Virus record (IMG/VR): IMGVR_UViG_3300005454_000004
Location: 1 to 39,144 of that record
Direction: 5' to 3' (one strand)
Length of the DNA stretch: 39,144 nucleotides
Source: a virus
Under the pieces are notes generated by a model. It searched no databases. It was not told the origin of the DNA and saw nothing but the letters and a program-made list of their open reading frames with translations. The position numbers and the translations under genes were made by a program. Below, piece by piece: positions 2,038 through 24,218 of the stretch (position 1 is its first letter; each line of letters opens with the position of its first letter).

Positions 2038-4239
2038 GTGGCGCGCATCGCGAAAAAATCCCCCGACAAACCCGACGAGCTGAAGAGCTCGACGGTCGAT
2101 AGCAAGGCTGCGCCCGACGCGCTCGCGACGGGCGACAAGCCCGAGAACTGGGCCGACAAGCCCGATTCCCCCGCCCACCAGGCCGCGAAGAAGCTCTACA
2201 AGCTGATCCTCAAGGGCTTCGAGAACCAGGCCGAGCAATCGGACCGGATCGAGGAATACTGGAACATCTACAACGCGCAGCCCGATGAGAACCTGCAGTA
2301 CACGGGGAACTCGCAGGGCTACATCCCGGCGGTGCGCGACTGCGTGAACGCGCGCGCGAAGCGGGTCCTGAAGCAGCTCTTCCCGGTGAACCACAAGCAC
2401 GTCGACGGCCTCTCGTCGGACGGCCGCGTGCCGAACCTGCAGCTCTCGCTCCTCGAGCACTACATCCGCAAGACCAAGCTCAAGGCCACGGTGCGCTCCG
2501 ATCTCATCGCGGGCGACGTGACCGGGCAGTGGTGCCTCATGATCGACTGGATGAAGAGCGAGCGGCGCGTGACGAAGCTCGTGCGCCGAAACCCGATCAT
2601 CGACGAGATCGACGGCGAGGACGTGTCCGATCTGGAGATCGAGGATCCGGGGGCCGATGAGGAGGAGGACACCGAGACCGAGGACGTGATCGACGAAGGT
2701 CCCGAGATCGTGGACTTCGCGGTCGAGGACCTCACGGTGATCCCGCCCACGTGCAACGACCTGCAGCGCGCGCAGGCGGCATGCGTGCGCCTTCGCCTCT
2801 CGGAAGCGCGCGTGAAGGAGATGGTCGACGAGGGTGTGTTCATCCTCCGCGAAGGCAGCGATCTCGACGACTACTGCAAGGGCAACTTCGGGAACCTCGA
2901 GAAGCGCAACCGCGAGAAGAAGCAGACCGAGGACGCGGGCGTGAAGACCCAGGGCACGAACAAGTACGCGCTCATCTTCATGGCCTACACGAAGCTCGAC
3001 CTCGGGAAGGGCGCGAAGGAATCCGCCGTCGTCTACTTCTCCGGGCCCGACGAGATCATCGGCATCATCAGGAACCCGCTGTGGAGCGGCAAGGTGCCGG
3101 TGATCTCGCAGCCGGTCGACCGCGTGAAGGGCTCGTTCTTCGGCAAGTCGAAGGTCGAGCCCGTGAAGTTCCTGCAGTGGCAGCTTTGCGACTTCTGGAA
3201 CATGGGCCAGGACTCGGCCATGTACTCGCTGCTGCCGATCTGGGCGGTCGACCCGCTCGCCGCTCCGCAGTGGGCGACGCTGGTGATGGGGCTCGCGGCG
3301 GTGTGGCCGGTCGACCCGAACAAGATCAAGCCCATGACGAGTCCGCAGCTGTGGAAGGACTCGGCGCAGATCTGCGACCTCATCAAGCGCCAGATCTGGG
3401 AGTCGATGGACGTGAACGAGATGATGATGGGCAAGCTCCCCGCGGGCCGGAAGAACAACCAGCTCATGGGCCAGATGCAGCAGGAGCAGTCGACCAACAT
3501 CAGCGACCACGCCGACCGCTACGAGGAGGAGATGTTGTCGCCCCTCGCGGAAATGCTCTTCGAGTTCGACCAGCAGTTCCGGGAAGACGAGGTGATGATC
3601 GAGTCGCGCGGCGAGATCGGCGTCGAGGCTTCGGTGAAGACCATCCCCGTGCAGCAGTGGGGCGAGCGCATCTTCTTCCGCTGGATCGGCTCGTCCTTCA
3701 TGACGAACATGCAGCGCATGCAGCAGCAGATCGCCTGGCTGAACGTGCTGAAGGGCATCCCGCCCCAGATGCTGGACGGCCGGCGCCTCAACCTGGCGCC
3801 CATCCTCGACAAGGGCACGGAGGACATCTTCGGGCCCGAGCTCGCGCCGAAGATCTTGGTCGACGAACGCAACATGTTCGTTGTCGATCCCGACACCGAG
3901 AACGAGATCCTGCACAACGGCATGACGGTGACCGTCCACGAGGCCGACGACGACCCGAAGCACATCCAGTCGCACATGAAGGCGGCGAGCCTCACCGGCG
4001 ACCCCGCGGGGCTTTACAAGGCCCACATGGCCGCGCACATGCAGGCGATGCAGGTGAAACGCGAGAAGCAGATGGCGGCGCAAATGCCCAAGGGCCAGCC
4101 GGGCGGACCCGGCGGCGCGGGCCCGGGTGTCGCCGGCGCGCCGCGGCCGGGCGCGCAACCAGGCGCCCCGCGCCCCGTGCAGAACCCCGCCGGCGCGATC
4201 CCGCAGGACAACATGGCCGGCGCACCAGGAAGGGGGTGA
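2038..4239 (+). CDS. Putative portal protein (733 aa)
   Basis: Large ORF just downstream of terL, with an acidic stretch (DLEIEDPGADEEEDTETEDV) and a Gly/Pro-rich C-terminal tail. Size and position are typical of portals. No sequence search was done. Confidence 0.7.
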   Translation: MARIAKKSPDKPDELKSSTVDSKAAPDALATGDKPENWADKPDSPAHQAAKKLYKLILKGFENQAEQSDRIEEYWNIYNAQPDENLQYTGNSQGYIPAVRDCVNARAKRVLKQLFPVNHKHVDGLSSDGRVPNLQLSLLEHYIRKTKLKATVRSDLIAGDVTGQWCLMIDWMKSERRVTKLVRRNPIIDEIDGEDVSDLEIEDPGADEEEDTETEDVIDEGPEIVDFAVEDLTVIPPTCNDLQRAQAACVRLRLSEARVKEMVDEGVFILREGSDLDDYCKGNFGNLEKRNREKKQTEDAGVKTQGTNKYALIFMAYTKLDLGKGAKESAVVYFSGPDEIIGIIRNPLWSGKVPVISQPVDRVKGSFFGKSKVEPVKFLQWQLCDFWNMGQDSAMYSLLPIWAVDPLAAPQWATLVMGLAAVWPVDPNKIKPMTSPQLWKDSAQICDLIKRQIWESMDVNEMMMGKLPAGRKNNQLMGQMQQEQSTNISDHADRYEEEMLSPLAEMLFEFDQQFREDEVMIESRGEIGVEASVKTIPVQQWGERIFFRWIGSSFMTNMQRMQQQIAWLNVLKGIPPQMLDGRRLNLAPILDKGTEDIFGPELAPKILVDERNMFVVDPDTENEILHNGMTVTVHEADDDPKHIQSHMKAASLTGDPAGLYKAHMAAHMQAMQVKREKQMAAQMPKGQPGGPGGAGPGVAGAPRPGAQPGAPRPVQNPAGAIPQDNMAGAPGRG

Positions 4240-4461: not shown

Positions 4462-4628
4462 CCGGCCGCATCCCCGACCAGGCGGTCCTCGAGGCGTCCA
4501 TCCAGACCCTCGTCGAGCGCTTCGAGCGCGAGCACCAGGTCGAAGTGAGCTCGATCTGGGTGGAGCACCGCGTGCCCGCCGCGGTCGAGGTGACCGTCAC
4601 CGTGCGCCGCCGGGTGAAGGCCGCATGA
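4458..4628 (+). CDS. Hypothetical protein (56 aa; below the ORF-track length cutoff)
   Basis: Read by hand as MTGRIPDQAVLEASIQTLVERFEREHQVEVSSIWVEHRVPAAVEVTVTVRRRVKAA. ATGA overlaps at both ends. Confidence 0.5.
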   Translation: MTGRIPDQAVLEASIQTLVERFEREHQVEVSSIWVEHRVPAAVEVTVTVRRRVKAA

Positions 4629-5041
4629 AGATCATGGGCATCCCGGTCGTGTTCGATCCGCGGCTCACGCAGATGCCGGCGGTCTCGCGCGGCTTCTGGC
4701 CGTTGAAGCGGATCGTGGTGGGACCCCAGTGGTACGAGCTCACGCCCGAGGCGCGGGTGTCGGTTCTCTTCCACGAGGTTCACCACTGCCTCGCGTTTCA
4801 CCTCGAGGTGCGCTTGGCGATCCTGCCGCTCCTCTTCATCGCGCCGCGCTTCACGCGCCGCATCTGCCGCGAGCAGGAGCTCGCGTGCGACCGCTTCGCA
4901 GCCTCCCAAGGCTGGGGGCTGGAGCTCGCGCGGCTGCTCGAGCAGCTGCACGACCTACCGGAAAGCGACTTTTACCCGACATGCATCGAACGCGCGCGGA
5001 CCCTGCGCGCCCACCTGGAGGACCCATGTTCAAACCCCTGA
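4625..5041 (+). CDS. Minimal M48/M56-like zinc metallopeptidase (138 aa)
   Basis: HEVHHCLAFH (HExxH-x4-H), then a hydrophobic segment (LAILPLLFIAP), then REQELACDRFAA. This resembles the E-x3-A-D third-ligand motif of HtpX/BlaR1-type peptidases. Confidence 0.65.
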   Translation: MKIMGIPVVFDPRLTQMPAVSRGFWPLKRIVVGPQWYELTPEARVSVLFHEVHHCLAFHLEVRLAILPLLFIAPRFTRRICREQELACDRFAASQGWGLELARLLEQLHDLPESDFYPTCIERARTLRAHLEDPCSNP

Positions 5042-5436
5042 AACGCGCGTTCGCCGCAGTCCTCGCCGGCATCTTCCTGCTCGCCTCGAGCCTGGTACAG
5101 GCGGGCGCCTGCTGCTCGTCGTTCTCGATCTTCCCCGACACCACGCGGAACTTCTCGTCCAGCGTGCTGCTGCCGCCCACGTACACCGACGCGATCGTGC
5201 TGGTCGCCAACGTCTCGCAGACGCAGACCATCCCGACGGGAGCGACGTGGGTCGTCTTCAGCGGCAATTGCAACTTCTACGCTCTTACGGGAGCGTCGGC
5301 CGCCGTCCCCGGCGCCACCACTACCAACGGCAGCGCGGCGATGCAGAACCCTGCGGCGTGGAATATCACGGGCTTCACGCAGGTGACGGTGGTGGCACCG
5401 TCCGCGTGCGTCGTCACCTTGTCCTTCTACCTCTGA
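5026..5436 (+). CDS. Hypothetical beta-rich protein with a signal-peptide-like N-terminus (136 aa)
   Basis: Internal ATG of track ORF 4729..5436. N-terminus MFKPLKRAFAAVLAGIFLLASSLVQAGACC. The upstream extension is Arg/Pro/Ala shadow sequence overlapping the peptidase gene. Confidence 0.6.
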   Translation: MFKPLKRAFAAVLAGIFLLASSLVQAGACCSSFSIFPDTTRNFSSSVLLPPTYTDAIVLVANVSQTQTIPTGATWVVFSGNCNFYALTGASAAVPGATTTNGSAAMQNPAAWNITGFTQVTVVAPSACVVTLSFYL

Positions 5437-5443
5437 GGCCACG

Positions 5444-6268
5444 ATGAAGCGCTTCCTCGTATCGCTGTTCATCGCACTCTTCACGACCTGCACGGTCGCG
5501 CAGGTCCCGATCTACACGCGGCCCGCGGCGGCCTCCGGCATCGCCAGCATCACCGGCGGCAGCATCACCGGGGTCACGGGCGTTGCGACGAACCTCGGCG
5601 GCTCGGGCATTCCCATCATCGGGCTTTCGACGGGGTCGGTCGCCGCGAACGGCGCCATCAGCGGCATTACCGCGCTGCCGCTCGTCTATCCCGCGGCGTA
5701 CTGCTACTTCCCGGCGAACGCGCTCGCCACGGCGATCGCCGCGGGCTTCTACTACTGCACGTTCAGCACCACGACGGCCGGCACGGCATTCCTGAACCAG
5801 TGGAGCTCGGGGCTGCCCGTGATTCCATCGAGCCCGACGCCCGTCACGGACGGGAAGGGCGCGTACACGGGCGACACGACCGAAGAGTTCATGCCGAGCA
5901 TCGCCATTCCCGCGCTCGGGGTGAATAGCCAGCTGTATGTCGACACCACCATCGTTGCGACGAACAGCGCGGGATCCAAGTCGGTCAAGTTCCGCCACAG
6001 CGGCAGCGGCGGCACGATCCTCTTCACCAACGCCATCACCACGGCCCAGAGCCAGCGCTTGCTCGGCGTTTCGGCGAATGCGGGCTCCACGAGCTCGCAG
6101 AGCGTGTCGTTCTTCACCGTGAACCAGGCGGGCGCCGCGTTCAACGGCACGCCGGCCATCCCGACCGTGAATACCAGCGCGGCGACGACGGGCGTCCTGA
6201 GCCTGCAGCGCGGCACGGCAACCGACAACATCATCCTGTTCGCATGGTCAATTGGTTTGTCGCTCTAG
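5444..6268 (+). CDS. Hypothetical Thr/Ser/Gly/Ala-rich structural-type protein with a signal-like N-terminus (274 aa)
   Basis: N-terminus MKRFLVSLFIALFTTCTVAQ. The composition is typical of fibre or receptor-binding proteins. High GC3. Confidence 0.7.
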   Translation: MKRFLVSLFIALFTTCTVAQVPIYTRPAAASGIASITGGSITGVTGVATNLGGSGIPIIGLSTGSVAANGAISGITALPLVYPAAYCYFPANALATAIAAGFYYCTFSTTTAGTAFLNQWSSGLPVIPSSPTPVTDGKGAYTGDTTEEFMPSIAIPALGVNSQLYVDTTIVATNSAGSKSVKFRHSGSGGTILFTNAITTAQSQRLLGVSANAGSTSSQSVSFFTVNQAGAAFNGTPAIPTVNTSAATTGVLSLQRGTATDNIILFAWSIGLSL

Positions 6269-6888
6269 CCTTTGCGCTAGGAGCGTGGGGGGGCGGCGGC
6301 CCCACCCCGACGTCGCCCCTATCGGTATGGGTCGTCGAGGGCGACAGCCTGAGCGACAGCCTGATCTCGGACTACCCGGGGCTGTACCTCCCGAACGCTC
6401 GGCCAAGCGTTGCCGCGGTGGATTTCGCGGTGGCGGGCTCGACGCTGAACGATGCGATCGCGCGCCAGGCGACCGTCGACATGGTCATTACGACCAACCG
6501 GGATGCGCCCCGATTCATCTTTTCGGCGCTCATCGGGGGGAACGGATTTTGCAGCGCCGGCAGCCAGTGCCTCCTCGACCAGATCACCGCGCTCGCCACG
6601 TACTACGACGGGCGCCGCGCGGCGGGATTCAAGGTCGTTTGCATCACCTGGACGCCGCGGACAACGGCGCTATTCAATCCGGCGCGCAACCAGGTCAACG
6701 TCGCGATTCGCACGTGGCAGGGCACGCACTGCGACGCGATCGCCGACTTCGCGGCCGACCCGATCATGGGGCCGGACGCTGCCGCTTCCGACGTCTCGCT
6801 CTATTCGGATGGCACTCACCCGACGGCGCTGGGCCACAGTTACCTCGAGGCCGACATCCGCCCGGTCCTGAACGGATTGCTGCATTAG
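6244..6888 (+). CDS. SGNH/GDSL-family hydrolase (214 aa)
   Basis: Block I VVEGDSLSD (GDS-L with the Ser nucleophile), block III IGGNGF, and block V SDGTHPTALGH (DxxH). Confidence 0.8.
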   Translation: MVNWFVALAFALGAWGGGGPTPTSPLSVWVVEGDSLSDSLISDYPGLYLPNARPSVAAVDFAVAGSTLNDAIARQATVDMVITTNRDAPRFIFSALIGGNGFCSAGSQCLLDQITALATYYDGRRAAGFKVVCITWTPRTTALFNPARNQVNVAIRTWQGTHCDAIADFAADPIMGPDAAASDVSLYSDGTHPTALGHSYLEADIRPVLNGLLH

Positions 6889-6891
6889 CCA

Positions 6892-6932
6892 AAAAGCCCA
6901 AATTTGACACAGCCCAAATATGGGCTTAACTT
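6892..6932 (+). promoter_or_regulatory. Copy 2 of the AAAAGCCCAAATTTG motif, with TTGACA(6904-6909)-17 nt-TAACTT(6927-6932); near-palindrome AGCCCAAATATGGGCT (6911-6926) fills the spacer
   Basis: aaaagcccaaatttgacacagcccaaatatgggcttaactt. It is followed by AAGGAG (6948-6953) and the ATG at 6961. Confidence 0.45.
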
Positions 6933-6960
6933 TCGGGCAGTCGTTACAAGGAGATAGACG

Positions 6961-7797
6961 ATGAAACAGAAAAAACTCGCTGCCCTGCTTTCCTCGTTCT
7001 TCTCCTTGGGCGTGGGCGCTCCGCTCACGAGCCTCCCCAGCATGATGCAGGTGAACGGCGCGCTGGTGGACCCGGGCGGGCTCATCTCGTTCCTGAACCA
7101 GATGAACGCGGCGAACACCGCCGCCGACGGGACGAACTTCCAGACCTCGGCGGGCGCGACGATCACGCTCACCTCGCTGCAGAACCTCACCCAGCGCCTC
7201 ACGAACGGCGGCGCGGTCACCGTCACCCTGGACTCGGCGTGGGCAATCGCCAACGCGATCCCGAACGCCTTCCAGAACCAGACCTTCCCGTTCACGATCA
7301 TCACCAACGCCGGCACCACGGTCGCGACGCCGACCCTCACCGGCTCGGGCGTGACGCTCTCGGGCACGACCACCGTGCTCGCCGCCGCGGCGCGCTGGTA
7401 TCAGGGACAGATCACCCAGATCGCGACCACGACCGGCGCGCCCGTCACCTCGGGCACGACCTTCACGTCGATCGCGCAGATCGGCTCGACGAACCGCTAC
7501 ACGGTGACCCTCGGCGTGAACGCGCTGGTCCCGGTGGTGGGCCAGGCGATCTACCTCAACGTCACGGCCGGCACGCTGCCCGCGGGCTGGTATCCGATCG
7601 ACCTCGTGAGCTCGGCCACCTCGTTCGTCTGCGTGCTGCCCCCGTCGGGCACCGCCTGGACCGCGACCGCCGCCACGATCCCGGGCACCGTCACCGTGCC
7701 GGTCTCGCAGTACCAGTCGGGCTACACCGGCATCTTCTCGCCGCTCATCACCATCACCGGCATGATGGCGACCGTCACCGCCACGATGTCGGTCTAA
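6961..7797 (+). CDS. Hypothetical virion-module protein (278 aa), Thr/Ala/Gly-rich, with the leader motif
   Basis: Strong RBS AAGGAG. N-terminus MKQKKLAALLSSFFSLGVGAP. High GC3. Confidence 0.7.
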   Translation: MKQKKLAALLSSFFSLGVGAPLTSLPSMMQVNGALVDPGGLISFLNQMNAANTAADGTNFQTSAGATITLTSLQNLTQRLTNGGAVTVTLDSAWAIANAIPNAFQNQTFPFTIITNAGTTVATPTLTGSGVTLSGTTTVLAAAARWYQGQITQIATTTGAPVTSGTTFTSIAQIGSTNRYTVTLGVNALVPVVGQAIYLNVTAGTLPAGWYPIDLVSSATSFVCVLPPSGTAWTATAATIPGTVTVPVSQYQSGYTGIFSPLITITGMMATVTATMSV

Positions 7798-7807
7798 GGC
7801 CCCGACG

Positions 7808-8299
7808 ATGCGCGCCCTCACCCGCTGCCTGAATCTCCTGTGCCTCGGCACGCTGGCCCCGATCCCACCCGGGATCACCGCCGACAAGTCTGCGGGGTGG
7901 GGCCTCTTCGCGCTGATGAACAACGCGAACGTGTACTCCGCGTTCTTCGTGACCCTCGCCACCGCGGGCACGAACAGCACGCTGACCGCCGCGCAGGCGA
8001 TCGCGGGGGCGCTGCGTCTCACCACCGGCGCGTCGGGCGGCTTCACGATCACGCTGCCGTCCACCGTGGCGCTCCTCGCCGCCCTCGGGCCCACGATCCC
8101 CACGGATGGCTCGTTCACGAAGTTCATCCACATCCTGAACGACGGCATCGGGCAGACCGGCACGCTCACCGCAGGTGACGCGAGCACCACGATCACCGGC
8201 ACCGCCACCATCGCCACCAACACCCGCCGCATGTTCGCCATGACCGTGACCGGCCCGTCGACCATCACGTTCCAGAACTTCGGCTCCCAGGCCATCTAG
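7808..8299 (+). CDS. Hypothetical virion-module protein (163 aa), with the leader motif
   Basis: N-terminus MRALTRCLNLLCLGTLAP. High GC3. It lies directly upstream of the scaffold gene. Confidence 0.65.
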   Translation: MRALTRCLNLLCLGTLAPIPPGITADKSAGWGLFALMNNANVYSAFFVTLATAGTNSTLTAAQAIAGALRLTTGASGGFTITLPSTVALLAALGPTIPTDGSFTKFIHILNDGIGQTGTLTAGDASTTITGTATIATNTRRMFAMTVTGPSTITFQNFGSQAI

Positions 8300-8302
8300 C
8301 CC

Positions 8303-9091
8303 ATGCTCATCTTCAAGCTGCTCGCTTCCTACCTCACCCTCGGCCACACCCCGCCTGCGGACGACAATCCCGATGCCGGTGCCGGTGCCGGCGGCGATGG
8401 CGCGGAGCCGCCCGACAAGCCGGACGGCGCTGGCGCGGACGGCGACGACGTCGATCCCGACCTCTCGGCGCTGGACGACGACGACGAGCCCGATGCGGCC
8501 GAGCAGCTCGCGACCGAGCGCGCGGCGCGCGCCAAGGCGGAGCGCGAGCTGGCGGAATCCCGCTCCCGATTCGAGGCCGAGCAGCGCGCGCGCTCCCAGC
8601 CCCCGCAGCCCTCGCAGGAAGAGCGGATCCGGGCCGCAGAAGAAGCTCGCCTCGCCGACCCGCAGATCTCCGACCAGGAGCGCTGGCAGATCGAGGCCAA
8701 TCGGACGCTCCGCCAGAACCACCAAGCCTCCCAGCAGGCCCTCTTCCAGTCGCGCGAGATCGCCGACAAGGCCGAGTACGAGCGCCTGTGCGGCTCGAAC
8801 CCGCTTGCGAAGAAGTACGCCACGCGGGTCGAGGAGAAGCTCACCGAGATCCGCCGCGGCGGCCAGAACGTGGAGCGCAAGTTCGTCCTCAAGCTGCTGA
8901 TCGGCGATGACCTCGTGGAGGGACGCGTGAAGAGTTCGAAGAAGAAAGAACCGGGCACCGGCACCGAGCCGGCGGCCGGAACGACCGTTCCTCGCGGCAA
9001 GCCCGCGATGGCGCGCAGCGATGTCCGCGGCCGCGCCGGCAACTCCGAGCGCGACAAGCGCCGGGCACGACTCGACGGACAACTCATCTGA
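8303..9091 (+). CDS. Putative scaffolding protein (262 aa)
   Basis: Immediately upstream of the major capsid gene. Very acidic N-terminal region, long charged helical segments (ERAARAKAERELAESRSRFEAEQRA) and a basic C-terminus. The only Met in the N-terminal region is at 8303. Confidence 0.6.
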   Translation: MLIFKLLASYLTLGHTPPADDNPDAGAGAGGDGAEPPDKPDGAGADGDDVDPDLSALDDDDEPDAAEQLATERAARAKAERELAESRSRFEAEQRARSQPPQPSQEERIRAAEEARLADPQISDQERWQIEANRTLRQNHQASQQALFQSREIADKAEYERLCGSNPLAKKYATRVEEKLTEIRRGGQNVERKFVLKLLIGDDLVEGRVKSSKKKEPGTGTEPAAGTTVPRGKPAMARSDVRGRAGNSERDKRRARLDGQLI

Positions 9092-9101
9092 GGTGGCGAC
9101 C

Positions 9102-10514
9102 ATGAAAAAAGCCCTGACCCTGATCCTCGGTTTCCTGACCCTGGGCGTGGTGAACGCCGCCGCGAGCTTCACCGCGGACGTCGAGGCCTTCATCCAGGAA
9201 GAAGTCGAGCCGCTCGCGCGCCGCCAACTGGTCGCCTACCAGTTCGGCAAGCCGCTGCACCTCGACGTGAACCGCGGAACCACGTACACGGCTTCGCGCT
9301 ACCAGCGACTGCCGCTCCCCTTCGCGCAGCTGCAGGAAGGCGTCGCCCCCTCGGGCTCGGCGATGACGCTCTTCCAGGTGTCCGCGACCGCCCAGCAGTG
9401 GGGCGACTGCGTGATCATCACCGACGTCGCGAACCTCACGATCAAGCACCCGCTCTTCCAGCAGGCGATCCAGCTGGTCTCGCTGCAGATGCCCGAGACC
9501 TTCGAGCGCAACACGTTCAACACGCTGCTCGCCGCGAACCAGGTGAACTACGCCAACGGCCGCGCGAGCCGCGCCGCGATCGTCGCCACCGACGTGATGA
9601 CCCCGCACGAGTCGAACAAGGTCTACGGCTCGCTCGTGACCTACGGCGCGCCGCGCTTCAACGGCGACGAGCGCGAGGACATGATGATCGAGGCGGGCGC
9701 CTACCGCGATCCCTCGAAGTCCCCGGCGGTGATGCAGCACTACGTCGGCATCATCCACCCGCTCGCCGCGCAGGACATGCGCGAGAACGCGCAGGTGAAC
9801 ACCGCCTGGTCGTTCTCCGACATCAACCGGCTCTACAACAACGAGCTGGGCGCCTTCGGCGGGATCCGCTGGGTCGAGTCGAACATGGTCCCGTACTGGA
9901 CCGGCAACGCGCTGGTGAGCGGCACCGCGTCCGCCGTCGGCGGGGCGCTCGCGACCTCGGCGACCTACAACATCATCGTGACGGCCGCACCGGCCCTCAC
10001 CTCGGTGGAGCAGCAGATCTACCAGGTGTCCGGCAACATCAGCGTGACGGGCCCGACCGGCTCGATCTCGGTGACGCTGCCCACGCGCGCCGGCTACGTG
10101 TTCAACGTGTACATCGGCACGTCGGCCAGCCCGACCAACCTCGCGCTGTGCTCGGCGGGTCCCGCCACGGGTCCGCTCGCCGGCCAGGCCACCCAGCTGC
10201 CCTCGGGCGCGACGGTGGTCCTCACGGGTATCGGCGCCTCGCAGACCCCGCCCGCCGCGCCCGCGACCGGCGTCACGGTCTTCCCGACGTTCGTGATCGG
10301 GAACCAGAGCTACGGCCAGGTGATCCTCGAGAACCCCGAGTTCCACTACCTCACCGGGGCCGACAAGAGCGATCGCCTGAACCAGACCCGCGTCGTGTCG
10401 TGGAAGGCGTTCTACGGCTCGATCATCCTCAACCAGGCCTTCCTCGCGCGCATCGAGCATTCGAGCGCGTTCTCGCCGGGCTTCTCGGCCGGGACGATGG
10501 CGGACCTCTCGTAA
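9102..10514 (+). CDS. Major capsid protein, N4-gp56-like HK97-fold family (470 aa)
   Basis: ATG preceded by GAGGTGG. The size, the position after the scaffold and my recollection of this family's sequences support the call. No search was run. Confidence 0.8.
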   Translation: MKKALTLILGFLTLGVVNAAASFTADVEAFIQEEVEPLARRQLVAYQFGKPLHLDVNRGTTYTASRYQRLPLPFAQLQEGVAPSGSAMTLFQVSATAQQWGDCVIITDVANLTIKHPLFQQAIQLVSLQMPETFERNTFNTLLAANQVNYANGRASRAAIVATDVMTPHESNKVYGSLVTYGAPRFNGDEREDMMIEAGAYRDPSKSPAVMQHYVGIIHPLAAQDMRENAQVNTAWSFSDINRLYNNELGAFGGIRWVESNMVPYWTGNALVSGTASAVGGALATSATYNIIVTAAPALTSVEQQIYQVSGNISVTGPTGSISVTLPTRAGYVFNVYIGTSASPTNLALCSAGPATGPLAGQATQLPSGATVVLTGIGASQTPPAAPATGVTVFPTFVIGNQSYGQVILENPEFHYLTGADKSDRLNQTRVVSWKAFYGSIILNQAFLARIEHSSAFSPGFSAGTMADLS

Positions 10515-10527
10515 CCAGGAGTAGCTG

Positions 10528-11121
10528 ATGACCAAGAAGGCCACGGGCGGCGCCACGCCGCCCGGTGTTTCTCCGGAGCAGCACATCGAGATCGCGTCGA
10601 CCACCGGCGCGAAAGCGAGCGACGTGAACAAGCTGCTCGCCGAGATCGAAGAGCTCAAGGCGAAGCTGCAGCTCTCGGAGGAACAGCGCAGCGAGGCCGA
10701 GGCGGCCGCGCTCGCGATGGCCGAGGCGCAGGGCGCGCTCATGCAGCGCGAGATCCGCGAGGTGCCGACCGGGAAGTTCGTGACGGTGAAGCGCGCGGTC
10801 GACCCGAAGACCGGCAAGCCCTCGTACCGCGTCGCGGGCTACAAGGATGACGGCCGCGAGATCCTGAAGCCGGTCTTTCACGACTTCAAGCTCCCGACCT
10901 ACTTCTACAAGGTCGACATGCCGCCCGTCGGCGGCGTGGACCTCAAAATCAACGACGTCTCGTTCTACCACGGCGTGGTGTACGAGCTCGACATCGACAC
11001 GCTCCGCAGCGTGAAGGAGATGGTCTATCGTCTCTGGGACCACGACCGCAGCATCCACGGCTCCGACGAGAATTTCTACCGGAAGCCCCAGGAGACGACC
11101 CTCACCGGCGCGAGGCGCTGA
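10528..11121 (+). CDS. Hypothetical head-associated protein (197 aa) with an N-terminal coiled coil
   Basis: High GC3. It follows the capsid gene, and its stop overlaps the next start. Confidence 0.7.
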   Translation: MTKKATGGATPPGVSPEQHIEIASTTGAKASDVNKLLAEIEELKAKLQLSEEQRSEAEAAALAMAEAQGALMQREIREVPTGKFVTVKRAVDPKTGKPSYRVAGYKDDGREILKPVFHDFKLPTYFYKVDMPPVGGVDLKINDVSFYHGVVYELDIDTLRSVKEMVYRLWDHDRSIHGSDENFYRKPQETTLTGARR

Positions 11122-11555
11122 TGGGGGCCCAGATCGAGGCCCAAGACGTCGCGGCCCGGGCGGTCGTCGGCACTTTCCAGTGCCAGATGCAGCTCTCCAA
11201 CGCGCGCTCCATCGTGATCACGGGGCACATCTACGACAACGACACGAAGGTGCAGCTGAACCAGCGCATCGACTTGTACCAGGACGCGGTCGATCGCCAG
11301 GCGCTGCGCGTTTCCATCACCGAGCAGGAGCTTCGTCGCAAGGCGATGATGGGCGGCATCGAGCAGGTGAAGCGCCAGCTCGAGGAGCTCAAGGCGCGCC
11401 AGGACGCGAAAGGCGGCGGCGCGAAGCGCCTGAACTCGCAGGACATGGTCAAGATCCAGAACGGCGACAACCAGATCAAGTCGATGCTCGAAAACATCGA
11501 GCAGCTCGACAAGGACATCCTCGAGGGCAAGCGCAAGCTCGGGATGGAAGTGTGA
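11121..11555 (+). CDS. Hypothetical protein (144 aa), helical C-terminal half
   Basis: High GC3. Its ATG (11121) starts on the last base of the TGA stop of the preceding ORF (TGATG). Confidence 0.7.
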   Translation: MGAQIEAQDVAARAVVGTFQCQMQLSNARSIVITGHIYDNDTKVQLNQRIDLYQDAVDRQALRVSITEQELRRKAMMGGIEQVKRQLEELKARQDAKGGGAKRLNSQDMVKIQNGDNQIKSMLENIEQLDKDILEGKRKLGMEV

Positions 11556-11559
11556 GCTC

Positions 11560-12774
11560 GTGCAAACCGCCCAGCAGATCTGTCTGCTCGCTTCCACGGT
11601 CGCCAAGGGCGGGACCGGCATGGTCGCGACCGCCGGCCAGTTCCTGAACCTCACGCTTCAGGACCTCAAGCTCAACCGCCAGCTCAAGATCAACCGCGTC
11701 ACGCAGACCCTCAACGTGCCCGCGGGCTCGAACGGCCCGTTCACGCTCGAGACGGACTACCTTCGGACGTACGACATGTTCTACCCGCTCCAAGGGCCGA
11801 ACGGCATGACGCAGTTCCTCACGCCGATCACCATGGAGCAGTATGACGAGGAGTGGAAGAACCCGTCGGTCTCGAACTTCCCCTACGAGTTCGCCACCGA
11901 CCTCTCGACGCAGGCGAAGCTCGCGACCGCGACGGTGATCCCGACGGGCACGGTGGGATCGCTCACGGTAACGGCGAGCGGTTCGGGTTTCACGTCCTTT
12001 CCCGCCCTCGGCTTCTCGGGTGGCGGCGGCACGGGCGCCGCCGGCTCGCCGCACATGGGGTTTTCATTCGGCGGGGTCAACAACGGCGGCGCCGGCTACG
12101 TCGTCGGAGACGTGTTGACGTTGGTCGGTGGCACCTTCACGCGTCCCGCGAAGATCCTGGTGCGCACCGTCGGCGGCGGTGGCTCGGTTTCCAATCTTGT
12201 GATCGTCGACACCGGCGACTACACGGCGCTCCCTGCGGGGCTCGGCGTCTCGATTATCACCACCGGCGGAACCGGCAACGGCATGCTCTTCGCGTGGCTC
12301 GAGATGCTGATCTCCTCGGCCGTCGTGACGAACGCGGGCGCGAATTACACGTCGGCCCCGACGGTGACCGTGACCGGCGGCGCCGGCACCGGCGCGCACG
12401 TGACGGCGGCCATCTCCGCAGGCTCGACGGTCCTCGGCTCCGGCCAGCTCTACATCTACCCGCAGTCGTCGGGCGCGCTCGCGATCACGCATCGGTACAT
12501 GCGCGACCAGCCCGATCTCGTGAACCCGGAATCGAGCTCCGAGGTTCCGTGGTTCCCTCACCAGCAGTACCTCATCCACCAGGTCGCCGCGATGATGATG
12601 GGGATCTCGGGCGACGACCGGCAGGCGAACTTCCTCGCCCAGGCCGAGACCATGCTGCGCCCGTTCCTCATCATGGAAGGCGACGAGCAGCAGACCGTGC
12701 GCTCGATCCGCCTGGACCCCCGCCACTTCAAGTCGAACCGGGGCCTGCGGCCGACGAAGGTCAATCCGTACTAG
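11560..12774 (+). CDS. Putative head-tail adaptor / tail-tubular-A-like protein with inserted Gly-rich repeat domains (404 aa)
   Basis: GTG start. Two repeat units of the type NxGxGYxxxPxVxxxGGxGxGAxxxA. The position after the head genes is the basis for the functional label, which is tentative. Confidence 0.55.
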   Translation: MQTAQQICLLASTVAKGGTGMVATAGQFLNLTLQDLKLNRQLKINRVTQTLNVPAGSNGPFTLETDYLRTYDMFYPLQGPNGMTQFLTPITMEQYDEEWKNPSVSNFPYEFATDLSTQAKLATATVIPTGTVGSLTVTASGSGFTSFPALGFSGGGGTGAAGSPHMGFSFGGVNNGGAGYVVGDVLTLVGGTFTRPAKILVRTVGGGGSVSNLVIVDTGDYTALPAGLGVSIITTGGTGNGMLFAWLEMLISSAVVTNAGANYTSAPTVTVTGGAGTGAHVTAAISAGSTVLGSGQLYIYPQSSGALAITHRYMRDQPDLVNPESSSEVPWFPHQQYLIHQVAAMMMGISGDDRQANFLAQAETMLRPFLIMEGDEQQTVRSIRLDPRHFKSNRGLRPTKVNPY

Positions 12775-12783
12775 GCCCCGGGC

Positions 12784-14403
12784 ATGATCCCCCAGAGCCG
12801 CCCGATCCGCTTCACCGCGAAAGGACTCACGGACGCCTTCGACGCGACCGACGAGTTCAAGGGCGCGTGCCAGTCGCTCTCGAACCTCATCTTCGACCAG
12901 TCCAATCCGGAGCTGGTGATCCCGCGCCCGGGCGTGCAGCAGACCGGCGCGATCCCGAATAGCGGCTTCGTCTCGACCCATGTAACCGTCGGCACGCGCA
13001 TCTACGGGATGGTGGCGTCGGCGGCTTTCGCCGGCCACGACGAGCCGTTCTGCTACGACACCAGCACGACGTCTTTCGTGCCGATCACGGGCGTGACGGC
13101 CGCGAACACGCCGACGTCCCCGATCTCGGTCCTCTCGGACTGGACCCCGCCCACCATCGCGTCGGTGGGCGTGTACCTCGTCGTGACGCACCCGGGCTTC
13201 AACGGCACGGGCACGCTCTTCTTCGGCCTGATCGACCTCTCGAACCCGGCGATTCCGATCTGGAGCTCGGCGAACTGCACGACCAACCCGCTCACGGCGG
13301 TGCCGAAGGCAGTCGCGAACCTGAATAACCGCGCCTACTTCGCGGTAAAGAACCAAGTGCAATTCAGCGACGTGCTGAACCCGAAGGTGCGCACGAACGC
13401 GACCCAGGCGCTCACGATCTCCGACACCGAGGACATCAACGCGCTCTCGGGCCTGCCTGTTCAGACCACGAGCTCGGGCGTGGTGGGCGCGCTCGTGATC
13501 TGGAAGACCTCGCAACTGTGGCAGGTGACGGGCGATCCCACGACGAACGACCTCGCCGAGAACTTCATCTCGCTCACCGTCGGCACGCTCTCGCCGCGCA
13601 CGATCGCGCAATCACCCGCGGGCGTCTATTTCATCTCGACGTCGGGTCCGTACTTCATCGACCCGCTGGGCACGCTGCGGCCGCTCACCGTGCGCGTGGA
13701 TAGCGCCGAGCCCGACGTGCAGCTGCCGTTCATCAACGCGACGCGGCCCTCACGCTGGGCGGGCGCCTACGCCTCGTCCATCTACCGGGTCTGTGGTCCC
13801 GCCGAGATCGACGGCACGGAGGTGACGCAGGACTACTGGTTCGACGAGCACCGCCGACGCTGGAGTGGGCCGCACACGTTCGCCTACGACTGCGCGAGCA
13901 CGATGAAGGGCTTCTTCATCCTCTCGTCCTATCTGCATGGCGGCGTCCTGTGCTCGAGCGACGTCGTGCCTAAGCTCTCGACCGTCTATACCGACCTCGG
14001 GGCTACGTACACCGTGGACCTCCAATCGTCGACCTTCCCGAAGACCGGCGACATGTGCATGAAGCAGGTGGTGGAGTCGCAGATCGAGCTGGGCGGCTCC
14101 TCGGTCACGTACACGATCACGGCCGAGGACGAGGCTGGCAACGTGCTGGACAGCGTGACGATCACCACGCCCGCGAGCAACGTCCCGGTGTGGGGCGGCG
14201 GCGCCGTGTGGGGCGATGGGACCCTCTGGACCGGCGCGCGCAGCCAGCCACCGCTCACCTATCCCGTCCCGTGGACGAAGCCCCTCGTCTTCGAGAAGCT
14301 GCAGCTGCACATCACGGCGCCCGTGAGCTCGTCGCTCAAGATCGGGACGTTCTTCGCGCGCTACCAACAGACCGGCTACATGACCCCAGGACCCACGCCA
14401 TGA
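12784..14403 (+). CDS. Putative tail (nozzle / tubular-B-like) protein (539 aa)
   Basis: Large beta-rich ORF between the adaptor-like and fibre-like genes. High GC3. The function is inferred from position only. Confidence 0.55.
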   Translation: MIPQSRPIRFTAKGLTDAFDATDEFKGACQSLSNLIFDQSNPELVIPRPGVQQTGAIPNSGFVSTHVTVGTRIYGMVASAAFAGHDEPFCYDTSTTSFVPITGVTAANTPTSPISVLSDWTPPTIASVGVYLVVTHPGFNGTGTLFFGLIDLSNPAIPIWSSANCTTNPLTAVPKAVANLNNRAYFAVKNQVQFSDVLNPKVRTNATQALTISDTEDINALSGLPVQTTSSGVVGALVIWKTSQLWQVTGDPTTNDLAENFISLTVGTLSPRTIAQSPAGVYFISTSGPYFIDPLGTLRPLTVRVDSAEPDVQLPFINATRPSRWAGAYASSIYRVCGPAEIDGTEVTQDYWFDEHRRRWSGPHTFAYDCASTMKGFFILSSYLHGGVLCSSDVVPKLSTVYTDLGATYTVDLQSSTFPKTGDMCMKQVVESQIELGGSSVTYTITAEDEAGNVLDSVTITTPASNVPVWGGGAVWGDGTLWTGARSQPPLTYPVPWTKPLVFEKLQLHITAPVSSSLKIGTFFARYQQTGYMTPGPTP

Positions 14404-14969
14404 AAACGCTCGCCGCACTTCGCCAGTTCCTCACGCTCGGCGTGATCATCGGGGCGCTGCCCAGCACGATCTCCAACGGGAATGCGGTCGACGCGATCCC
14501 GGTGATGAACGACCTGAACTTCATCGTGGCGCAGGTGAACGCGAACGCGGCGGCGGCCTCCTCGGTCCCGGCCTTCACGAACGTGACGTCCTTCACGCCG
14601 ACGCTTTCCTTCGGCGGCTCGAGCACGGGCATCACCTACCTCATCCAGACCGCGGCCTACGTGAAGATCGCCACCATGGTGCTCTTCACGATCGACATCT
14701 TCCTCACGAGCAAGGGCGCGCAGGTTGGGGCCGCCTCGGTGGGCGGGTTGCCGTTCGCCTCGAGCGGGAGCTTTCCGCCTGGCAGCGCGCCGACGGTCAC
14801 CATCCTCACCCAGAACGTGACCTTCGCCGCGGGCTACATCGTCGGGCTTCTGAGCGGTTCGAGCATCTCGATCATCAACCCCGTGACGGCCGCCTCCTTC
14901 AACACGCTCACGAACGTGGCGTTCGCGAACAACTCCGAGCTCATCATCACGGGCATGTACTCGACCTAA
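14400..14969 (+). CDS. Tail-fibre-like protein (189 aa), with the leader motif
   Basis: ATGA overlap with the previous gene. SNGNAVDAIPVMNDLNFIVAQVNANA resembles the conserved N-terminal segment of many phage fibre proteins. N-terminus MKTLAALRQFLTLGVIIG. Confidence 0.65.
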   Translation: MKTLAALRQFLTLGVIIGALPSTISNGNAVDAIPVMNDLNFIVAQVNANAAAASSVPAFTNVTSFTPTLSFGGSSTGITYLIQTAAYVKIATMVLFTIDIFLTSKGAQVGAASVGGLPFASSGSFPPGSAPTVTILTQNVTFAAGYIVGLLSGSSISIINPVTAASFNTLTNVAFANNSELIITGMYST

Positions 14970-20018: not shown

Positions 20019-21368
20019 ATGTCGCGCCGGCTCCTCCTGATCGACACCTGGAGCAACTTCCTCGACTTCGCGATGCGAGCGCAGGAATGGGGCTGGGAGG
20101 TGGTGTGGTGGGACCGCAACCGGAAGGACGGCTCGGTGCGCACCGCCGGGCATGGCATCGTGAATCGCCTCATCGACTACGACCAGCTGCGGTCGAAGTA
20201 TCTCGACTGGGCCGATCTCATCGTGCTCGCCGACAACACGAACTACCTCGACATGCTGGAGCCGTACCGGGAGGCGGGTTATCCCATCTTCGGGCCGTCG
20301 TGCGAGGCCGCCGAGCTGGAGCTCGATCGCGCCAAGGGACAGGAGGCGATGAGGCGCGCGGGCCTTAACATCATCCCCGGCGTGGAGTTCCATGATTACG
20401 ACGCCGCGGCGCGCTTCGTGGAGAAGCATCCGACCTATCTAGTGTCGAAGCCCTCGGGCGACGCCAACAAGGCGCTTTCGTATGTAGCGCCGAACACTGC
20501 GGCGCTCCTCTACATGTTCGAGCGCTGGGCGCGCAACGAGAAGTACGTGCGCGACGCGCGCAAGCACGGCTTCATCCTCCAGGAGAAGAAGACCGGGTGC
20601 GAGTTCGCCGTGGGCGGCTGGTTCGGTCCTGACGGGTGGTCGCGCTTCTTCTACGAGAACTTCGAGTTCAAGAAGCTCATGGCGGGCGACCTTGGCCCCA
20701 ACACGGGCGAGATGGGGACGCTCTCGATGTACGTGCGGAAGTCGAAGCTCGCCGACATCGCTCTGAAACCCATGACCAAGCAGCTCAAGGCCCTCGACTA
20801 CGTGGGCTTCGTCGACGTGTCCGGCATGGTCGACGACGCGGGCGAGTTCTGGCCCTTCGAGTTCACGATGCGCCCGGGCTGGCCCACCTTCCACAATCAG
20901 ATGGCGACCACCGAGGGCGACCCCGCGCAGTGGATGCTCGACAAGCTCGCCGGCCGCGACACGCTCAAGGTGCGCGAGAACCAGGCGTGCGTCTCGGTGC
21001 TGATGGCGATCCCCGACTTCCCCTATTCGAAGCTCACGAACAAGGAAGTCTCGGGCATCCCCGTGTACCTGAACGACGCCGACCGCAGCGCCGTCCACCT
21101 CTCGGAGGTGAAGCTGGGGGAGGCGTACGTGCAAGTGAACGGCCAGCCGTTGAAGATGCCGTGCTATGTCTCGTCGGGAGACTACGTCGCCGTGGTGACG
21201 GGCGTCGGCGAAACCATCACCGGCGCGCGGCGCAGCGCCTACTCGCAGGTCCGCAAGATCAAGATGCCGGCCGACCCGTTCTACCGACCCGACATCGGCG
21301 CGGGGCGCCTCGTGAAGGAGTTGCCCCTCGTGCAGAAGCACGGCTTCGCGCAGGGGTTCAAGGTATGA
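20019..21368 (+). CDS. PurD (glycinamide ribonucleotide synthetase)-like ATP-grasp ligase (449 aa)
   Basis: Collinear with E. coli PurD as I remember it: [22 protein letters not shown] vs [33 protein letters not shown] vs [37 protein letters not shown] vs [49 protein letters not shown]...RPDIG vs GGRVLCVTALGHTVAEAQKRAY...RKDIG. The N-terminal GNGGREHA motif is absent. Confidence 0.85.
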   Translation: [449 protein letters not shown]

Positions 21369-22865: not shown

Positions 22866-23165
22866 ATGACCTCACGCGTAGAAGAGGACTCGTTCGAGAT
22901 CGAAGGGCCGATGGGGACACACGCCAGGGCCCGCGGCCCCGGCGCGATGCTGGCGCTGCTGATCGTCACCGGCTTCGCCGGCATGGTGGCCCTCTGGTGG
23001 GTGCATCACAACCAGATGCTCACCGATCACGACCTGGTCAAGCAGGAATTCAACGAGATGGTTTACGTGCTCTCCCTGCCGGAAGAGGAGCGCGCGAAGC
23101 TGCGCCTCGCGATGCCGGAATCGTTGCGGCACAAGGTGCGGCGCGCCCATGAGGAAACGCAGTGA
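22866..23165 (+). CDS. Single-pass membrane protein (99 aa); i-spanin, antiholin or holin-like candidate
   Basis: RBS AGGGAGG. One TM segment (AMLALLIVTGFAGMVALWWV) followed by a charged helical tail. First gene of the lysis cassette. Confidence 0.55.
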   Translation: MTSRVEEDSFEIEGPMGTHARARGPGAMLALLIVTGFAGMVALWWVHHNQMLTDHDLVKQEFNEMVYVLSLPEEERAKLRLAMPESLRHKVRRAHEETQ

Positions 23166-23578
23166 CACTCGGGGAAAAGCAGCGCCTTTTCACCCGCCTC
23201 CTCGCGAATCTCATCGCCTGGGCCTACGGGCAAGGTTACGAGATTTCGGTGGGCGAGGCGTGGCGCACCGACGAGCAGGCGGAGATCAACGCGATGGGCC
23301 CGTGGGGCCGGGAGCGCGTGGCGGCCTTCATCGAGGACCTGTGGCCCGTGTTCGCGGCGAAGCTCCGCAACAACGCGGGCTCCGGGATCCGCAACAGCCT
23401 GCACGAGCGGCGTCTCGCGATGGACCTGAACCTCTTCAAGGGCGGCGCGCTCCTCACCAAGGCCGAGGACTACGAGCCGCTCGGCGTGTACTGGGAATCG
23501 CTCGATCCGCAGTGCTGCTGGGGCGGGCGCTTCAGCGACGCGGACCACTTCTCGATCACCGACGGAGGGCAACGGTAA
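23162..23578 (+). CDS. Endolysin, peptidase M15 (VanY / L-alanyl-D-glutamate peptidase-like) family (138 aa)
   Basis: Zinc-ligand pattern NSLHERRLAMDL (H-x6-D) and CCWGGRFSDADHFS (D-x-x-H), plus RTDEQ upstream. Confidence 0.85.
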   Translation: MTLGEKQRLFTRLLANLIAWAYGQGYEISVGEAWRTDEQAEINAMGPWGRERVAAFIEDLWPVFAAKLRNNAGSGIRNSLHERRLAMDLNLFKGGALLTKAEDYEPLGVYWESLDPQCCWGGRFSDADHFSITDGGQR

Positions 23579-23856
23579 TGGACGAAGCCAACAAGCAAGC
23601 ACTTCTCAGCGCAATTCGCTCCCTCCTCATCGTGCTCGGCTCGTCGCTTATCGCGCACGGCTGGGTCACCGACACGCAGTGGACGCAGATCGTCGGCGCG
23701 CTCACGACCATCGCCCCGATCGCCTGGGGCGTGTTGGACAAGTTCCAGGCGGAGAAGAACACGCAGGCCCGCGTGGCCGATGCGGTCGCCACCGCCACCG
23801 GCGCGCACCCGACACTCACCGCGGCGGATGCCGCCAATGACGGAGGTAAGCCATGA
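23578..23856 (+). CDS. Holin candidate with two TM segments (92 aa)
   Basis: Its ATG starts on the last base of the endolysin TAA stop (TAATG). LLSAIRSLLIVLGSSLIAHGW and IVGALTTIAPIAWGVL are the TM segments, followed by a charged C-terminus. Confidence 0.65.
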   Translation: MDEANKQALLSAIRSLLIVLGSSLIAHGWVTDTQWTQIVGALTTIAPIAWGVLDKFQAEKNTQARVADAVATATGAHPTLTAADAANDGGKP

Positions 23857-24218
23857 AGCTGTTGTTCGCTGCAATCCTTTCGTTCGTCCTCGCGGCGTGC
23901 GCCACCGGCGCCACGCCGACCGATCCCGCGCAGGCGGTGTACCAGGCCAAGGCCGACTACACCGCCGCGCTCACGGTCGCCGTCGCCTACCGGAACCTGC
24001 CGCCGTGCGGCGCCGGGCCCGCGGTCCTGTGCTCGCAGGCGAAAGTGGTGGCCCAGCTGCAGCAGGCCGACGACGTCGCCTACCCAGCCCTCCAGGCGGC
24101 CGAGAACACGGTGCGCGCGCCGGGCGCCGGCGCCAATGCGCAGACCGCCATCCTCGCCGCGCAGCAGGCCGTCGCCGCGCTCACGGCGATCACCCAGACC
24201 CTCCAGGTGAAGCCATGA
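23853..24218 (+). CDS. Lipoprotein (121 aa); outer-membrane spanin candidate
   Basis: Lipobox MKLLFAAILSFVLAAC. Located in the lysis cassette. ATGA overlaps on both sides. Confidence 0.65.
   Translation: MKLLFAAILSFVLAACATGATPTDPAQAVYQAKADYTAALTVAVAYRNLPPCGAGPAVLCSQAKVVAQLQQADDVAYPALQAAENTVRAPGAGANAQTAILAAQQAVAALTAITQTLQVKP

Follow-up and report, generated by a model that had tools for sequence, protein, structure and literature searches.

A shared N-terminal leader on non-homologous virion proteins of an uncultured podophage lineage, and a phage-encoded minimal M48-type peptidase as a candidate for its processing

Leader peptides in the morphogenesis region

Positions 1 to 39,144 of the IMG/VR virus record IMGVR_UViG_3300005454_000004 (hereafter the window, meaning the whole stretch that was analysed) hold an almost complete, temperate and podovirus-like genome of about 39 kb with 67% GC. 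In its morphogenesis region a number of proteins, all encoded on the + strand, begin with the same kind of short leader, which has the form M-(K/R), a Leu-rich helix, and the ending [F/Y]-[L/F]-x-[L/P]-G (less often P or A), followed by V, I or A. This N-terminal extension is 12-25 residues long, and the slash in the sequences given below marks the junction that follows its Gly. The scaffolding protein (gene 8303-9091) starts with MLIFKLLASYLTLG/H (8303..8344) and the major capsid protein (MCP, gene 9102-10514), a member of the N4-gp56 family (PHROG 1357, E 1.3e-36), with MKKALTLILGFLTLG/VVN (9102..9146). A decoration- or fibre-like beta protein, g6961 (gene 6961-7797), carries MKQKKLAALLSSFFSLG/V (6961..7011), and its orthologues have leaders of the types FLTLG, FLTLP and AFSLG. 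The fibre-like protein g14400 (gene 14400-14969) carries MKTLAALRQFLTLG/VIIGALP (14400..14441) and protein g7808 (gene 7808-8299) carries MRALTRCLNLLCLG/T (7808..7849). A doubtful member is the SGNH hydrolase (gene 6244-6888), whose hydrophobic N-terminus MVNWFVALAFALG/A (6244..6282) is without K/R.

These N-termini were scored with a position-specific scoring matrix (PSSM) of 12 columns, covering positions -11 to 0 relative to the Gly, which was trained on 119 leaders of MCP homologues with the window excluded. The scaffold obtained 25.3 bits, the window maximum, the MCP 23.3, g6961 22.5 and g14400 14.6. Only five of the 6205 positions in the 21 window proteins reached at least 12 bits, four of them being the N-termini of these same proteins, and the scaffold, g6961 and fibre N-termini are the top non-self window matches to what is an MCP-only matrix. 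On these scores the four proteins can be regarded as secure leader carriers. The leader of g7808 is weak when taken alone (6.8 bits) but gains support from its orthologues, which score 12-18 bits. The initial annotation had listed six proteins with a common leader and the Gly at residue 13-17; all N-termini and Gly positions read as it quoted them, and its list holds for the four secure carriers and, through orthologues, for g7808, but not for the SGNH hydrolase, whose 2.4 bits are at chance level.

Five of 17 members of the g7808 family matched PHROG 673, which bears the label 'head scaffolding protein', and no sequence match was found in the PDB that would identify g7808 from solved structures. 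Residues 6-153 of g6961 are homologous to this family (hhalign 95.6%, E 1.3e-8), so the leaders of these two proteins may have one origin. In two related loci (L007, ORF at 506; L016, ORF at 1647) the encoded protein combines a g7808-like domain with collagen-like G-P-T/G-A-T repeats and a long Gly-rich C-terminus, which suggests that the g6961/g7808 family serves to attach fibre-like appendages, possibly to the head.

A model of the MCP made with AF2 shows a helix over residues 2-12 and then a break, at a mean pLDDT of 61 from a shallow alignment of close homologues, which makes it a low-confidence model.

Conservation of the leader in related loci

Practically every one of the 120 best MCP homologues has the leader, and in upwards of 90 related loci, six Burkholderia/Paraburkholderia prophages among them, leaders were found on the capsid and scaffold proteins. 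Motif matches in these loci were placed on homology-anchored open reading frames (ORFs), since gene calling based on GC3 proved too leaky or too strict. For the MCP the consensus reads M-K-K-L-L-A-L-L-A-A-F-L-T-L-G-V-T-N-T-S, in which the Gly is as a rule residue 15, and alignments to distant MCPs (for example that of Bacillus phage Page) open at residues 21-24, just past the leader. Scaffold orthologues reached at least 11 bits with the MCP-derived matrix in 63 loci (for example MNKLLKKLLGLLFPG/IDGDDD), and most of those below 11 bits keep a recognisable variant, such as MLDLLRKYLHLG/AVEEDD. The conservation at protein level which the initial annotation proposed is thus borne out by the alignment of orthologues.

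The resemblance could also be explained by chance or composition, or by start codons that were set too far 5' in a genome of high GC. Within the window alone the motif is indeed short, and three of the eight proteins proposed as members or allies (the SGNH hydrolase, g5026 and g5444) do not rise above chance. Against this explanation stand the retention of the leader on the MCP and scaffold across the lineage and the concentration of high-scoring positions at N-termini in the window. Moreover, the MCP ATG at 9102 is preceded by a GAGGTG Shine-Dalgarno sequence, a tetramer of this kind lies 4-18 nt before the leader ATG in 77 of 86 orthologues, and codon diversity in the MCP leader is higher at the third position (0.55) than at the first and second (0.44 and 0.41). 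We give this explanation hardly any credence and consider it effectively refuted by the sequence comparisons. A further candidate, that the motif is a Shine-Dalgarno sequence read in frame, was rejected: the LG codons are CTC/CTG-GGC and the true Shine-Dalgarno sequence sits 5' of the leader ATG. It had also been remarked that the underlying DNA differs between the copies; they do differ, but this is weakly informative, as the three LTLG copies differ at wobble positions only.

Co-variation of leaders within genomes

Two main flavours of the leader exist, ending in F-L-T-L-G and L-L-F-P-G, and FFRLG is also seen. The FPG flavour, with Phe at -3 and Pro at -2, accounts for 26 of 47 distinct MCP leaders and 29 of 43 scaffold leaders. 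The flavours of MCP and scaffold agree in all 56 loci that could be scored (41 xPG, 15 xLG, none discordant). The agreement within genomes is finer than the flavour: FF variants occur together in L010, L019 and L031, LLLPG is found on both proteins in L086, and the contig L089 has FFRPG, FFRLP, FFRLH and FFRLG on four different proteins. Over the five motif residues the MCP and scaffold of the same genome share 3.68 of 5 on average, against 2.28 when genomes are shuffled, a value reached by none of 20,000 permutations (38 genomes; kinship is partly controlled for in this comparison). The excess holds inside each flavour, where 2 and 23 of 20,000 shuffles reached the observed identity.

Since MCP and scaffold are non-homologous, several independent and correlated leader changes must have happened. 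To judge from the sequences, this co-variation implies either a common reader of the leaders or gene conversion between them. The MCP, the scaffold, the fibre protein and several unrelated small proteins in other genomes (such as L018_2092 and L003_5763) are independent carriers.

In some genomes the residues past the junction are also common to non-homologous proteins. The g6961/g7808-like genes of L048, L065 and L072 encode FLTLG/VVNTSQ, FLTLG/AAANTTS and FFSLA/AANTTS, to be compared with G/V-[V/T]-N-[T/A]-S in the MCP, in which the Asn is invariant (119 of 119). This sharing hints at an exchange of whole N-terminal modules or at an extended recognition site.

Modularity and the junction

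The fibre family exists in two forms. Eighteen distinct N-termini are extended and read ...[F/Y]-[L/F]-x-[L/M/P]-[G/P/A/C]-[V/A/I]-I-I-G-x-L-P, and 24 are leaderless and read M-[A/P/S/T]-(I/V)(I/V)-x-x-L-P, typically M-A-IIGTLP; on the fibres the leader is present in about half of the lineage. In the leaderless orthologues the initiator Met sits exactly at the position of the leader Gly, and members of the g7808 family align in this way too. A cut after the Gly would therefore yield the same N-terminus as Met excision does in the leaderless relatives.

The residue that follows the junction is V, I, A or L in all 47 distinct MCP leaders, in all 43 scaffold leaders and in 15 of 16 fibre leaders. 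Gluzincin metallopeptidases usually prefer a hydrophobic residue at S1', and the aliphatic residue found here fits such a preference.

A minimal M48-type peptidase next to the portal gene

The gene at 4625..5041 (+) encodes a protein of 138 amino acids which the initial annotation had pointed to as a possible phage protease. Our analysis agrees and, from its family profile, its motifs and its modelled fold, assigns it as a predicted minimal zinc metallopeptidase of the M48 type in which all catalytic motifs are invariant; it is here considered as the candidate leader peptidase. In an alignment of 72 sequences H50, E51 and H54 (the HExxH motif), E85, D89 and P118 are invariant, and R63, A88 and R123 are conserved in at least 90%. 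These residues correspond to the HExxH motif of M48 enzymes, to the E-x-x-A-D helix with the Glu that acts as third ligand, and to the C-terminal (H/Y)P-x4-R, and they align with the same motifs in Ste24p. Pfam Peptidase_M48 (PF01435) was matched by 25 of 26 family members (best E 1.6e-9), and a precomputed match to it is on record for many of the homologues in the databases. A profile search of the PDB returned Ste24p (1.6e-7), then ZMPSTE24, proabylysin, HtpX, BlaR1 and BepA. The AF2 model has a pLDDT of 96.5, and its top 13 Foldseek matches are all ZMPSTE24, Ste24p, BlaR1 or the M48 protein 3c37, with query TM-scores of 0.53-0.59 and modest E-values (from 4e-3 up).

The phage protein shares the HExxH, E-x-x-A-D and (H/Y)P-x4-R motifs with the M48/M56 enzymes Ste24/ZMPSTE24, HtpX, BepA, BlaR1 and the soluble proabylysin, and its family resembles minimal archaeal forms in size (about 110-140 aa). 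It differs from these enzymes in being a stand-alone protein, encoded in a morphogenesis module and without a transmembrane barrel. Members of the family are stand-alone proteins of about 110-160 aa, and 346 clusters at 50% identity were collected at E <=1e-10 from 1.84 billion representative proteins, nearly all of them 110-170 aa long.

The position of the gene is constant. It lies between the portal and scaffold genes, mostly adjoining the portal, in all 42 IMG/VR loci that cover this interval, and likewise in six of six prophages and in the divergent contigs L089, L091 and L096. This interval is the usual place of the prohead protease; in lambda, for instance, the genes run portal, protease, scaffold, decoration, capsid. 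The canonical prohead proteases (HK97 gp4 of family S78, T4 gp21 of S80, lambda C of S49) have their genes likewise between portal and scaffold or capsid, and share with the product of 4625-5041 a presumed N-terminal trimming of head proteins, but differ from it in catalytic class and fold. None of the families S78, S80 and S49 was detected by Pfam or PHROG among the 20 proteins scanned in the module from the terminase to 18386.

A shared tag and its putative processing

We propose that the leader is a shared tag of the virion proteins, carried by non-homologous structural proteins, always by the MCP and scaffold and variably by decoration-like proteins of the g6961/g7808 family and by tail fibres, and that one common partner would read all the copies of a genome. 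The likeliest partner would be the phage's own stand-alone M48 peptidase, encoded in the slot of the prohead protease, which is the most economical candidate for a reader that is one factor per genome. We infer that this enzyme would clip the tag at or beside the junction between Gly and the aliphatic residue, before or during assembly. Before its removal the tag might coordinate folding or co-assembly, or it might keep the subunits incompetent for assembly. Processing would take place on subunits that are still free or on intermediates of assembly, either in the cytoplasm or at a membrane surface, in the manner of the host protease Prp. As the external fibres are tagged too, processing confined to a sealed procapsid, the mode of T4 and HK97, is unlikely to be the general mechanism. 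In favour of the proposal count the matches of the MCP-only matrix to other virion proteins, the co-variation of leaders, the alignment of Met with the leader Gly in leaderless orthologues, the aliphatic residue past the junction, the constant place of the peptidase gene and its invariant motifs, the absence of canonical prohead proteases among the 20 proteins scanned, the leaderless outgroups described below and the precedent of phage 80alpha. Judging from sequence and from analogy with known systems, we regard it as an evenly balanced matter whether the leader is a cleavable tag that the M48 peptidase reads and clips. The fuller claim is slightly more tentative: that a large group of temperate podophages, uncultured and infecting Burkholderiaceae and soil bacteria related to them, has a maturation system not described before, in which an M48 peptidase in this slot removes a co-evolving, genome-specific tag that can sit on any structural protein and serves as a portable address for assembly or processing.

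One precedent, to which the initial annotation aptly referred, is staphylococcal phage 80alpha: its capsid and scaffold proteins have a leader of 13-14 residues in common, which the host protease Prp cuts off at an L27-type motif. Assembly needs the leader of the scaffold but not its cleavage, and a tail protein of another phage bears this motif too (PMC5744158). In both systems an N-terminal leader of 13-15 residues is common to a non-homologous capsid and scaffold protein, the motif is found on other virion proteins as well (here the fibre and other proteins of the virion module), and a hydrophobic motif closes the leader just before a junction that is small or aliphatic; the processing in 80alpha, moreover, is not confined to sealed procapsids (PMC5744158). 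The differences are also clear. The candidate here is a phage-encoded M48 zinc metallopeptidase acting in a predicted cleavage, whereas in 80alpha the enzyme is a cysteine protease of the host; the motif is [F/Y]-L-x-[L/P]-G/V/I/A instead of ..F-(F)/A, with no evident mimicry of ribosomal protein L27; and the hosts are Burkholderiaceae. To our knowledge these hosts, like proteobacterial hosts in general, are without Prp and the L27-extension system (no search was made for Prp itself).

A second likeness is with phage T4, where a capsid-targeting sequence of about 10 aa at the N-terminus is common to several head proteins and serves as an address tag clipped by gp21 (PMC9958956). The two systems share a short N-terminal tag and a phage-encoded protease, which here is only a candidate. 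The T4 tag is borne by internal core proteins and not by the capsid protein, scaffold or fibres, and gp21 is a serine protease that acts inside the prohead, while here external fibres are also tagged, which argues against a purely intra-prohead role. T4 gp21 cuts at L/I-x-E.

Several observations weigh against the proposal of a tag clipped by the M48 peptidase. All through one lineage the leader is accompanied by the M48 gene, and with two outgroup genomes for comparison their association is inseparable from shared ancestry. Nor does the co-variation tell which factor reads the leader: the scaffold, the portal and a host factor are all candidates. At the junction (P1) the residue may be G, P, A, R, Q, C or H, a spread seldom seen at a strict protease site, and the end of the motif could be a mere helix terminator. 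The window protein itself obtained 14.6 bits against a curated Pfam cut-off of 20.3, so that its assignment to M48 is based on family profile, motifs and fold. No meaningful homologue of the M48 protein was found in 50,697 INPHARED phage records.

A serious rival is an explanation in which the leader is a functional tag for assembly, chaperoning or timing that stays uncleaved or is cleaved by the host, and the M48 peptidase does another job, such as degrading the scaffold or acting on another protein or a host target. The conservation, modularity and co-variation need a common reader and not an M48 peptidase, the variable junction residue suits a helix-breaker as well as a cleavage site, and in 80alpha the protease is host-encoded and dispensable cleavage goes together with an essential scaffold leader (PMC5744158). 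What makes us consider it rather unlikely is that a catalytically invariant peptidase is kept in the maturation-protease slot at every related locus examined, that no further protease family turned up among the 20 module proteins scanned, and that the registry between Met and junction in leaderless orthologues argues that the mature domain must begin at the junction. The presumed lack of Prp in the hosts, mentioned above, speaks against it as well.

If the proposal of clipping by the M48 peptidase is true, it would add a fourth catalytic class, that of metalloenzymes, to the serine proteases of the HK97/T4 type, the serine proteases of the ClpP/SppA type and the host cysteine protease Prp in phage maturation, and it would provide the first phage-encoded counterpart of the arrangement of 80alpha and Prp. 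A common leader on capsid and scaffold is already known from 80alpha; the motif, its spread to decoration-like and fibre proteins, the genome-specific co-variation and the pairing with a phage-encoded minimal M48 enzyme would be new. In the literature searched, on minimal M48 forms, Peptidase_M48 in phages, metalloproteases as prohead proteases, and Prp/L27, no M48 enzyme appeared as a phage virion-maturation protease, and we know of none. The function of a shared capsid and scaffold leader is unexplained even in 80alpha, and the present lineage offers hundreds of natural variants, in two flavours and with genome-specific sub-flavours. The leader has been gained and lost repeatedly on fibres and decoration proteins, and culturable lysogens make the question directly testable. 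A portable tag with a dedicated small protease could also serve the engineering of cargo loading or of conditional assembly.

Resemblance to signal peptides

The initial annotation described the leader as similar to a Sec signal. If the leaders were signal peptides or membrane anchors of the Sec type, they would direct virion proteins to or across the inner membrane and be trimmed by the host signal peptidase I, and assembly would be associated with the membrane. The MCP leaders do look like signal peptides, with a mean of 1.7 K/R, no D/E and an uncharged run of about 12 residues, and the T-L-G flavour obeys the (-3,-1) rule of signal peptidase. In addition, the relatives of the M48 enzyme are mostly membrane proteases, the phage enzyme itself has a hydrophobic/aromatic-basic stretch after its HExxH motif, and two neighbouring genes, g5026 and g5444, encode classical signal peptides.

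The scaffold leaders, by contrast, are basic amphipathic helices (mean 2.6 K/R, uncharged run of about 8, helical moment 0.45), the uncharged run of the window fibre leader is only 6, and some MCP leaders are short and fairly polar, for example MAYRQLPMYLFPG. The FPG flavour, because of its Phe at -3 and Pro at -2, breaks the (-3,-1) rule, and the residues found at -1 include P, R, Q, H and C, of which P, R, Q and H violate the rule for that position. Moreover, as is well established, a scaffold and an HK97-type capsid protein have to come together with portal, terminase and DNA in the cytoplasm. Taken as a whole the leader family does not appear Sec-like, contrary to that description, its common trait being a Leu-rich basic helix which ends in [F/Y]-[L/F]-x-[L/P]-[G/P/A]; export through Sec is in our view an improbable explanation of it. 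For the clipping by the M48 peptidase proposed here, processing at the inner face of the membrane is a secondary possibility, given the hydrophobic or aromatic-basic segment that follows HExxH, the amphipathic or hydrophobic leaders and the membrane association of most M48 enzymes.

Signals of the prepilin, lipoprotein, Tat and sortase types were rejected as well: the hydrophobic part precedes the Gly instead of following it, there is no lipobox Cys and no twin arginine, and the motif is N-terminal.

The proteins g5026 (5026-5436, +) and g5444 (5444-6268, +) had been allied to the leader set by the initial annotation. We do not retain them: their N-termini are generic and signal-peptide-like, with uncharged runs of 19 (VQA/GA) and 16 (TVA/QV), respectively, and their PSSM scores of 4.5 and 3.7 bits are, like that of the SGNH hydrolase, at chance level. 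The SGNH-like hydrolase has an uncharged N-terminal run of 13, and its GDSL-like Pfam matches are under the curated cut-off. These three genes lie between the M48 peptidase gene and g6961, had no orthologues in 80 related loci, and look like variable cargo in the head module.

Outgroups

The nearest outgroups in GenBank, MW202637 and MW202477, have leaderless MCPs that are 26-30% identical. In MW202637, the one whose upstream region was inspected, the scaffold is leaderless too, and the interval from portal to MCP holds no M48 gene. We found no genome with either the leader or the M48 gene alone, and the divergent contigs long enough to hold the capsid gene (L089, L091, L096) are of the same lineage and all have leaders. 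The small fibre-like proteins of the outgroups (L081, MW202637 14608-15141; L082, MW202477 4804-5400) show a ..DLN..L..V..N.. motif and Sec-like hydrophobic N-termini; hydrophobic N-termini on fibre-like proteins may be older than the leader system.

Genome organization, relatives and hosts

Along the + strand the window opens with the 3' part of the gene for the large subunit of terminase (66-1355), followed by the portal gene (2038-4239), after which come two small ORFs and then the gene of the 138-aa HExxH protein. The MCP gene is followed by two small genes and by the gene of an SU10-type adaptor (11560-12774, +); g12784 (+) stands between this adaptor and the fibre-like g14400, and large Gly-rich proteins are encoded downstream of the latter (+). 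Further along, the - strand encodes an endolysin of the M15 type (23162-23578), a lipoprotein with a LAAC lipobox (23853-24218) which was taken as the outer spanin, and a tyrosine integrase (25244-26281). The endolysin, the lipoprotein and the integrase, together with relatives in Burkholderia/Paraburkholderia prophages, indicate a temperate phage of a Gram-negative host.

No similar DNA was found among 50,697 deposited phage genomes. Homologues of the MCP number about 1,990 in metagenomes, with 224 IMG/VR loci, and prophages of several Burkholderiaceae have them as well, among them Paraburkholderia phenoliruptrix LMG 22037 (locus L083), P. tropica LMG 22274 (L087) and Burkholderia semiarida CCRMBC74 (L085), which places the host range in Gram-negative Betaproteobacteria. 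The lineage is uncultured, but its lysogens exist in culturable strains of Paraburkholderia and Burkholderia.

Two further genes were noted. Directly after the large Gly-rich proteins, a GARS/ATP-grasp-like protein is encoded at 20019-21368 (+), with matches to Pfam GARS_C (1.1e-7) and GARS_A (1.9e-5), neither of which reaches its curated cut-off. A basic ORF of 56 aa, MAVSRSHSKKAPSQNPVGFF...DKLSGGPMRE (1441-1611, +), separates the terminase gene from the portal gene; it had no match in Pfam and is kept in divergent relatives (L089, 5952-6122; L091, 2976-3152).

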